From the NCBI RefSeq assembly GCF_001677475.2, contig NZ_CP015229.1: DNA of 64,000 nt; one strand, given 5' to 3'. The stretch comes from Escherichia coli. Its GTDB lineage: Bacteria > Pseudomonadota > Gammaproteobacteria > Enterobacterales > Enterobacteriaceae. The stretch's first letter is position 1. The number at the start of each line of letters is the position of its first letter. Below, one piece after another: positions 20,673 through 21,661 of this stretch. The notes under the pieces are model-generated. The model searched no databases. It was not told the origin of the DNA and saw only the letters and a program-made list of their open reading frames with translations. A program made the position numbers and the translations under genes.

Positions 20673-20966
20673 TTAATTATCGTTCAGCATACTAAACATC
20701 CCGTCACGCATCCCCTTAACCGCCTGTTTGACCTGGTAAAGTTCCCTGCGCAGTTCCTGTACTTCGTTGTTATCCGCTAGCAGGATCAGGCAACCTTCCG
20801 AGATCTTCACGGTAACGCCCGTGCCGATCTCAAATCCCGCTTCTCTCAGCCATTTGGCGCTGATTTTGATCACCGGCGTGTCGCTGCGGTTGGGCAGATA
20901 GCCCACGGTACAGTGGCGCTGTGTTTTGGAAATGGTGACTTCTGGCGTAATATCGTGTTCAGCCAT
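20673..20966 (-). CDS. symE: SymE-like type I toxin (AbrB-fold)
   Basis: 97 aa; ...IKISAKWLREAGFEIGTGVTVKISEGCLILLA... closely resembles the SymE core. Confidence 0.7.
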   Translation of the reverse strand: MAEHDITPEVTISKTQRHCTVGYLPNRSDTPVIKISAKWLREAGFEIGTGVTVKISEGCLILLADNNEVQELRRELYQVKQAVKGMRDGMFSMLNDN

Positions 20967-21169
20967 GATTAACTACCTTGATTAGTTGCTTGTGGTGAGC
21001 GGTGATTAAGGGGGGGGCAGCCCCAGGGAAAGATCACATAACGTTGTTTTTTGCACTAAATAATTCGCACTATATATTCAATAATTGAGTAATTCCTTAT
21101 TACTCAAAACTGTTTTTCACAGCTTATATATAATCAAATACTCCTTACATAAATAAGGAGAACAAAATG

Positions 21170-21661
21170 GTACTTAAAAAATGATGGAGCATATTTCTAT
21201 TATCCCTGATTACAGACAAGCCTAGAAAGTGGAACATAATTTGTCAGATATTCTACTGTTGACTATTTGTGCCGTCATTTTCGGGGCTGAAGGATAGGAA
21301 GATATAGAGGATTTTGGAGAAACACATCTCGATTTTTTGAAGCAATATGGTCATTTTAAAAATGGCATCCCCGTTCACGATTCCATTGCCAGAGTTGGAT
21401 CCTGTATCAGTCCTGCAAAATTTTAACTGGATGCGTGACTGCCATTCCTCAAATGATAAAGACATTATCGCAATTGATGGAAAAACGCTCCGGCACTCTT
21501 ATGATAAGAGTCGCCGCAAGGGAGCGATTCATGTCATTAGTGCGTTCTCAACTATGCACAGTCTGAGCCTTGGGCAGATTAAGACAGATGAGAAATCCAA
21601 TGAGATTACAGTGACCGCGCGTCAGTCCTTGCGGAGGGCGTCTACCCAGCCCCTTCCCTAA
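21170..21661 (+). mobile_element. yafF: ISAs1-family (H-repeat-associated) transposase remnant, frameshifted and truncated (yafF-like pseudogene)
   Basis: Frames encode MEHISIIPDYRQA..., ...LSDILLLTICAVIFGAEG..., ...[47 protein letters not shown]..., matching the N-terminal third of H-repeat ORF-H across shifted frames. Confidence 0.65.

Follow-up and report, generated by a model that had tools for sequence, protein, structure and literature searches.

The SymE/SymR pair of Escherichia coli K-12 is a type I toxin-antitoxin system. SymR was experimentally shown to be a 77-nt RNA, and the −10 hexamer of its gene, TAGAAT, was placed inside the symE open reading frame (ORF) (Kawano 2007; PMC1891008). 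K-12 SymE is currently annotated as a nucleoid-associated protein. It is now regarded as a DNA-binding, nucleoid-condensing protein and not as an RNase (Thompson 2022, as reviewed in PMC11894785). SymE-family genes were found near RHS/haemagglutinin loci, transposons, cHTH genes, and primase-helicase islands, and a conserved sequence upstream of the start codon was taken as a hint of small RNA control (Kawano 2007, Fig. 7; PMC1891008); later genome papers mention SymE near type VI secretion system (T6SS) and Rhs genes in passing. Two other RNAs were described beside Rhs genes: Salmonella IsrA, antisense to STM0294.1n and expressed inversely to this target (PMC2330248), and Shigella Ssr1, located between the Rhs gene SF0268 and SF0269 (PMC4782007). 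Neither paper connects its RNA to SymE/SymR. In this study, we analyzed positions 20,673 to 21,661 of a 64,000-nt stretch of E. coli DNA (assembly GCF_001677475.2, contig NZ_CP015229.1), referred to as the window. The segment carries a symE-family gene, the 5′ part of a SymR-type antisense RNA gene, and a remnant of the insertion sequence (IS) ISEc1, next to yafV. The arrangement is ordinary, annotatable decay at an island boundary, with a SymE/SymR-type module and a decayed ISEc1 at an Rhs terminus. Our best explanation, to which we give a probability of about 0.5 as a whole, is that a T6SS-linked Rhs element ends here in a degraded 3′ terminus, in which the IS cut symE off from its native control region.

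The ORF list and the sequence showed, in this order, a minus-strand ORF of 97 aa, an AT-rich spacer, a plus-strand ORF of 104 aa, and a minus-strand ORF of 259 aa. The 97-aa protein matched Pfam SymE_toxin (PF08845; cutoff, 29 bits) at residues 16–62 with a score of 55.1 bits (E = 7.9e-15) and shared 46% identity with the core of K-12 SymE. The ORF has no lesion, and the initial annotation of a SymE-like gene on the minus strand was thus correct. The SymE equivalog model NF010128 of NCBIfam, which represents the K-12 orthologue, scored 47.2 bits, below its cutoff of 132. These comparisons indicate that the window symE belongs to a paralogous subfamily and is not the K-12 orthologue. The two genes share the Pfam family, whereas K-12 symE encodes 113 aa, lies in the hsd/mcr region, and has a LexA box, and the window gene encodes 97 aa, lies at an Rhs terminus, and has none. 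The dN/dS ratio of the window symE was 0.19 compared to the copy in E. coli HD12481 (locus L001) and 0.11 compared to a copy at the ybgA locus (L009), suggesting that the ORF has been under purifying selection, with most of the measured divergence predating the truncation described below.

The 5′ end of symE was exceptionally conserved. No synonymous changes were found in codons 1–17 (20916–20966) compared to distant subtypes, and pS was ~0.5 in the remaining codons; this invariance extended to the Citrobacter and Yersinia copies. In the alignment with E. coli relatives and K-12 symE/symR, the near-invariant block stretched between approximately codon 22 and a point ~35 nt upstream of the symE start. 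An embedded promoter and RNA or repeated conversion, or the two together, would be consistent with the invariance of codons 1–17. A putative symR-like promoter was located on the opposite strand (Table 1), with its −10 hexamer TAATAT (20950–20955) exactly as far from the start codon as TAGAAT of K-12 symR, inside codons 5–7 as in K-12. An antisense RNA from this promoter would start ~4–6 nt inside the symE ORF; K-12 SymR likewise starts a few nt inside its ORF. The arrangement typical of SymR, a promoter embedded in the 5′ codons of symE and an RNA over the start codon and the Shine-Dalgarno sequence, is therefore predicted for the window.

To locate such RNAs, a covariance model (R1) was used. 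R1 aligned 20961–20997 completely, and the predicted fold of this part equaled hairpin 1 of K-12 SymR, which also covers the start codon and the Shine-Dalgarno sequence. In intact relatives, as in K-12, hairpin 1 is accompanied by a hairpin 2 with a stem of 14–15 bp. In the window, the loop of hairpin 2 meets the IS left end directly (...GGCAGCCC followed by CAGGGAAAGATCA), and the 3′ arm of hairpin 2 and all native DNA upstream of the symE leader are absent. No two-hairpin SymR structure with a 14–15-bp terminal stem was found in the window; the remaining RNA folded like shuffled sequence (z = −0.5), and R1 scored 47.8 bits compared to 88.9 bits in L001. The Rfam model symR (RF01809) did not match anywhere in 19500–23000 at E values up to 1. 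The window thus differs from K-12 in that hairpin 2 and the upstream region have been cut away by the IS and in that Rfam symR misses it. An antisense RNA as in K-12 had been considered for this locus; a SymR-type gene is indeed recognizable, in a form cut short where the IS begins. Even if shortened or extended by read-through, the SymR-like RNA could still pair with the translation start region, and such residual pairing would explain why an intact symE ORF is tolerated. The window symE has probably lost its native transcription signals; it would then be silent unless transcripts from yafV or the IS read through into it.

The ybgA locus showed a related structure. Three copies (L006, 4372–4425; L008; L009) had the terminal 34 bp of the ISEc1 right end in place of hairpin 2 and an intact symE, which amounts to a second loss of hairpin 2, independent of that in the window. 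It looks as if a deletion removed the IS body in these copies and joined the symE leader to the right end of the IS. An origin of the IS right end from the SymR region was considered and rejected because the similarity was marginal (shuffle p = 0.01–0.36); we treat this similarity as microhomology that enabled the ybgA-type hybrid, not as shared ancestry.

The assignment of the RNA to a SymR-type family relies on comparison across loci. K-12 SymR adopted a two-hairpin fold (z = −5.3), as did the counterpart RNAs of L001 and L007 (z = −5.4 and −5.5). Hairpin 2 has a wholly different sequence in these two RNAs, and yet its arms are complementary, forming a terminal stem of 14–15 bp. In the RNAalifold consensus of a MAFFT alignment of eight sequences from five genera, 12 out of 28 pairs were changed on both sides. 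R1, built from these eight sequences, located the RNA at the homologous position in ~30 loci, overlapping the symE start by 6 nt. In this locus set, 91.7% of cells were paired and 18 pairs were changed on both sides, a result reached by none of 500 shuffles and compared to 27–46% pairing in slid controls, although the alignment was fitted to the model and is biased towards its structure. A locus outside the R1 training set (L073) had a new, fully compensated stem and scored 81.5 bits. RF01809 matched L007, L028, L023, and L026 at the R1 positions (E = 4e-6 to 6e-3; 35–48 bits, below the gathering score of 61). Numerous G-U pairs favored the plus, antisense strand. No SymR-like remnant was found at the K-12 rhsE-ydcC locus. 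Two loci carried a full SymR-like RNA (L036, 2928–3006, and L026, 2924–3006; 78–86 bits) beside symE ORFs cut to 31 and 22 codons, respectively; these copies may be orphan antitoxin RNA genes.

The ends of the IS were defined by comparing E. coli HD12481 (L001), in which the IS is present, with strain D6 (L005), which has an empty site. The full ISEc1/H-rpt element is 1291 bp, with the left end CAGGGAAAGATCA, the right end ...TAATCTTGCCCTG, and a 10-bp target duplication, GCTATCTCAA. It belongs to the ISAs1 family; such H-repeats of Rhs elements are represented in K-12 by ydcC and ybfD. Both terminal inverted repeats were found in the window: the left one at 21024–21036 (CAGGGAAAGATCA) and a degenerate right one at 21641–21649 (...TCTACCCAG). 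The last 38 bp of the remnant (21612–21649) aligned with the last ~50 bp of the IS; this position was taken from the alignment with the right ends of L002 and L003, as the MAFFT global alignment misplaced the right end. The terminal CCCAG was also present in the copy beside yafV in E. coli 19KM1831. Identity to full copies was ~85–88% in the left 588 bp, which include the left inverted repeat, and in the ~38 bp that close the right end. Homology to the IS stopped after ATTACAG at 21611, and ~640 bp were lost internally from the remnant as a whole (21024–21649). The transposase reading frame has a frameshift (1-bp deletion in an A-run after 21181), two stop codons (TGG to TAG at 21223–21225 and 21295–21297), and a 14-bp deletion after 21422. 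Because of these lesions, together with the internal deletion and the 12-bp deletion at the right end, the window IS is unable to encode a transposase, and the complete 378-aa transposase ORF was not found in it. The 104-aa ORF (21347–21661, plus strand) matched transpos_ISAs1 (NF033564; cutoff, 70 bits) with 78 bits, but only over profile positions 55–126 of 314. Since both ends are retained, the remnant is an internally deleted element and not a mere fragment. The earlier description as a frameshifted H-repeat fragment was therefore right about the identity and the frameshift and too narrow about the extent. No target duplication flanks the element: the sequences on its two sides do not form a direct repeat.

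The position of the IS next to yafV, as noted in the initial annotation, was clear from the yafV match (Table 1). E. coli 19KM1831 and elppa4 carry a full-length ISAs1-family copy between the Rhs tip and yafV with a right flank orthologous to that of the window; their left flank differs, and no symE is present there. The insertion next to yafV is thus an old one that these strains have in common. Other arrangements were observed at the same site: in E. coli PE164 (L076, 4250–4420), a deletion extends from about codon 2 of symE to the last ~25 bp of the IS, leaving a symE-like gene without a start codon, and in O157:H7, ISEc26 and only the terminator remnant are present. At a different kind of site, an xerC-flanked island, symE follows a helix-turn-helix (HTH) gene beside a DNA primase gene (L005, 4045–7749, and L001); in HD12481, an ISEc1 with a clean 10-bp target duplication sits between symE and the HTH gene. 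The L005 and L001 loci reproduce the cHTH/primase context of Kawano 2007.

None of 5426 complete E. coli genomes had the left junction or the internal-deletion junction of the window. When metagenome contigs were scanned for the internal-deletion junction, it was found in two, L074 and L075, which also shared the junction between hairpin 2 and the IS left end. The junctions of the window are thus inherited and not an assembly artefact, since two independent contigs share both. A poly-G run at 21008–21015 was G8 in the window and G6 in both contigs. From 20898 rightwards, L074 and L075 were 96–97% identical to the window, and leftwards of 19839, L075 was 98.7% identical to the window Rhs core. 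Between ~19839 and ~20898, both contigs had another Rhs C-terminal tip, another immunity gene, and a 109-aa symE subtype, which was intact in L074 and frameshifted in L075. Shared junctions with different contents indicate that the Rhs tip, the immunity gene, and the symE body were exchanged as one unit. Judging from these alignments, one crossover lies in the Rhs core (~19839) and a second within the conserved 5′ block of symE (~20898); the near-invariant block and the Rhs core may serve as homology arms for swapping the tip, the immunity gene, and the symE body. The suggestion of a recombination scar between the Rhs tip region and the chromosome holds for a rearranged end of an Rhs element; it does not hold for the junction of the IS and yafV, which is old, the breakpoints lying at ~20898 and ~19839. 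The RNA covariation test, the exact IS junctions, and the crossover evidence in the symE 5′ block go beyond the neighborhoods described in 2007.

To examine SOS control, LexA boxes were searched upstream of the window symE by using the 20-mer consensus (up to three mismatches), CTGT-N8-ACAG (up to one mismatch), and CTG-N10-CAG. None was found, as had been noted initially; the K-12 box, used as a positive control, was recovered with 15 out of 20 consensus positions. Among 29 SymR-bearing loci, only K-12 symE had a LexA box at the expected place, and the lack of a box is therefore a trait of the subfamily and not of the window copy alone. The upstream region lost in the window corresponds to the symE promoter and the LexA box in K-12; in D6, it contains the HTH gene, which is co-directional with symE.

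Several points weigh against our explanation, beside the alignment bias mentioned for the R1 locus set. The silence of symE and the firing of the antisense promoter are both inferred from sequence, and the putative promoter matches only 8 of 12 consensus positions. The conservation of the 5′ block could be due to gene conversion and not to selection on an embedded promoter. In L005, symE follows the HTH gene and may be co-transcribed with it, which makes the site of a native promoter less certain. The window symE and yafV point in the same direction, and yafV lacks a canonical terminator downstream, so read-through from yafV could express symE. Finally, the AlphaFold model of the 97-aa protein was of low confidence (pLDDT 62.6), for which reason the search for a MazE/AbrB-like swapped-hairpin fold gave no significant match: the top Foldseek matches were MazE (1mvf and 2mru, E = 0.18–0.24), followed by AbrB and VapB.

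The strongest competing explanation, which we consider rather unlikely, is a type I pair that still works, with symE transcribed from an outward IS promoter or by read-through from yafV and with the clipped RNA still repressing translation; lacking hairpin 2, this RNA would end at a substitute hairpin and U-run supplied by the IS at ~21041–21046. Such a pair would account for the intact symE ORF under purifying selection, and the ORF is also intact in L074 with the same truncation. Hairpin 1, complementary to the start codon and the Shine-Dalgarno sequence, has been preserved, and R1 found a weak substitute pairing, GCGGTG...CATAAC, then GTTGTTTTTT; this substitute fold, however, equals shuffled sequence (z = −0.5). 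A promoter-like site is present on the minus strand at 21278–21250 (9 of 12 matches) with no strong terminator after yafV, but a weak terminator-like hairpin, the only candidate between yafV and symE, lies at 21160–21141 (minus strand) between the candidate promoters and symE. L075, which has the same junction and a frameshifted symE, suggests relaxed constraint instead.

Somewhat less probable, in our judgment, is that the whole segment, with symE, what is left of SymR, and the IS, is functionless debris drifting towards deletion, the ORF being intact only for want of time to decay. The IS has at least six lesions, symE is frameshifted in L075, and stepwise loss is seen at the same site in PE164 (no symE start, no IS body), O157 (terminator only), and L002 and L003 (no symE). 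On the other hand, the symE ORF has zero lesions compared to five in the adjacent 590-bp part of the IS, the dN/dS of 0.11–0.19 against the nearest relatives argues for constraint even though most of that divergence predates the truncation, and the SymE family has been kept at Rhs termini across many genera. It is very improbable that the hairpins act in the leader (5′ untranslated region) of the symE mRNA and not in a separate antisense RNA: DNA hairpins can form on both strands, and hairpin 2 on the reverse strand still scores ~20 bits with R1, but the G-U and U-G pairs of the plus strand would be C-A mismatches on the mRNA strand, K-12 SymR is a demonstrated RNA at the homologous position (PMC1891008), and the position of the embedded −10 hexamer is conserved.

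The features of the locus are listed in Table 1. Upstream of symE, the window encodes TssM, TagF, VgrG, and the prePAAR-PAAR-Rhs protein, and yafV is followed by ivy and fadE. The C-terminal 130 aa of the Rhs protein (19906–20295) matched Tox-ART-HYD1 (PF15633) weakly, with 20.9 bits, below the cutoff of 25. The presumed immunity ORF had no match in Pfam, NCBIfam, or PADLOC, and PADLOC gave no defence-system match for the SymE-family protein; a defence-system role for either protein was therefore rejected. The terminator stem is 13 bp long, and U tracts accompany it in both orientations (dG = −18.7 and −21.1 kcal/mol; z = −5.0 and −5.5). The terminator is also the left edge of the conserved symE block, as homology with the symE loci of E. 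coli begins at 20630. Elsewhere in the T6SS cluster, a protein with two Rap1a immunity domains is encoded at 10152–10847.

Table 1. Features of the Rhs terminus and the adjoining IS remnant and yafV (window coordinates)
Feature	Position	Strand	Basis or remarks
prePAAR-PAAR-Rhs effector gene	16153..20295	+	Pfam RHS_repeat, prePAAR_I, PAAR, DUF6531
Presumed cognate immunity ORF, 111 aa	20288..20623	+	Overlaps rhs stop codon; assigned by position only
Bidirectional intrinsic terminator	20630..20671	both	Lies between the immunity ORF and symE, which converge
Intact symE-family gene, 97 aa	20673..20966	−	PF08845; Shine-Dalgarno AAGGTAG 7 nt upstream of ATG
Putative symR-like promoter	20926..20955	+	TTGGAA, 16 nt, TAATAT; within symE codons 4–14
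SymR-like RNA, 5′ end and hairpin 1, intact	20961..20997	+	Antisense to symE start codon and Shine-Dalgarno
SymR-like hairpin 2 remnant, 5′ arm and loop only	20999..21023	+	Alignment with relatives
ISEc1 left part	21024..21611	+	Left inverted repeat CAGGGAAAGATCA at 21024–21036; transposase pseudogene from ATG at 21168
ISEc1 right-end remnant	21612..21649	+	12-bp deletion; ends CCCAG; alignment with L002 and L003 right ends
yafV (2-oxoglutaramate amidase), 259 aa	21675..22454	−	NF007757, E = 1e-162

The divergent haplotype of the island does not stop at the IS. From ~22030 on, the core was 98–100% identical to E. coli, and the identity dropped to 94, 90, 82, and 72% towards the yafV stop codon; the best match to 21650–22030 among the 5426 complete E. 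coli genomes was 87.4%, and the vgrG-rhs region was at most 91% identical. This gradient indicates that the island haplotype enters the 3′ end of yafV by ~350 bp. An origin of the window from a non-coli Escherichia was rejected, since the core beyond 22030 is 98–100% identical to E. coli, with divergence confined to the island and the 3′ end of yafV.

SymE-like genes also end Rhs loci at ybgA and ydcC/pptA in E. coli, in which the primase island is a further site. In 31 out of 63 loci from different species, an Rhs core was found within 3 kb of symE, usually in convergent orientation; ISAs1 was next to symE in one of the 63 loci and is essentially confined to Escherichia in this position. The Rfam models Ssr1 (20284–20936) and isrA (20803–20910) both matched the window on the plus strand opposite symE with scores below the gathering scores (274 against 820 and 31.9 against 51, respectively), and these matches reflect mainly the coding conservation on the opposite strand. 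The isrA model scored above threshold in L006, L007, L036, and L026, and IsrA corresponds to the 109-aa symE subtype. IsrA and Ssr1, both detected experimentally, resemble the RNA described here in lying opposite SymE-like genes beside Rhs genes, and both appear to be antisense to such genes at Rhs loci.

A broader interpretation, which is possible and offered tentatively, is that the SymE/SymR-type module generally forms a 3′ bookend to Rhs elements in Enterobacterales. The 5′ block of ~110 bp, comprising the first ~17 codons and the SymR region, would be kept nearly invariant by the antisense promoter and RNA and would serve, with the Rhs core, as the downstream homology arm for one-cassette swaps of toxin tip, immunity gene, and symE body; ISEc1 would persist just upstream by disconnecting symE from its promoter, and IsrA and Ssr1 would be products of the module. 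For annotation, the findings mean that symE genes at Rhs termini carry an unannotated SymR-type RNA gene just below the Rfam threshold and that IsrA and Ssr1 are readable as antisense RNAs of SymE-like genes. The shared junctions with different cassettes give concrete crossover points for tracing the exchange of Rhs toxin tips. The window haplotype and the ybgA copies, which have both lost hairpin 2 and the upstream control region with the toxin-like ORF intact, could serve as a natural test of the need for hairpin 2 and the native promoter.

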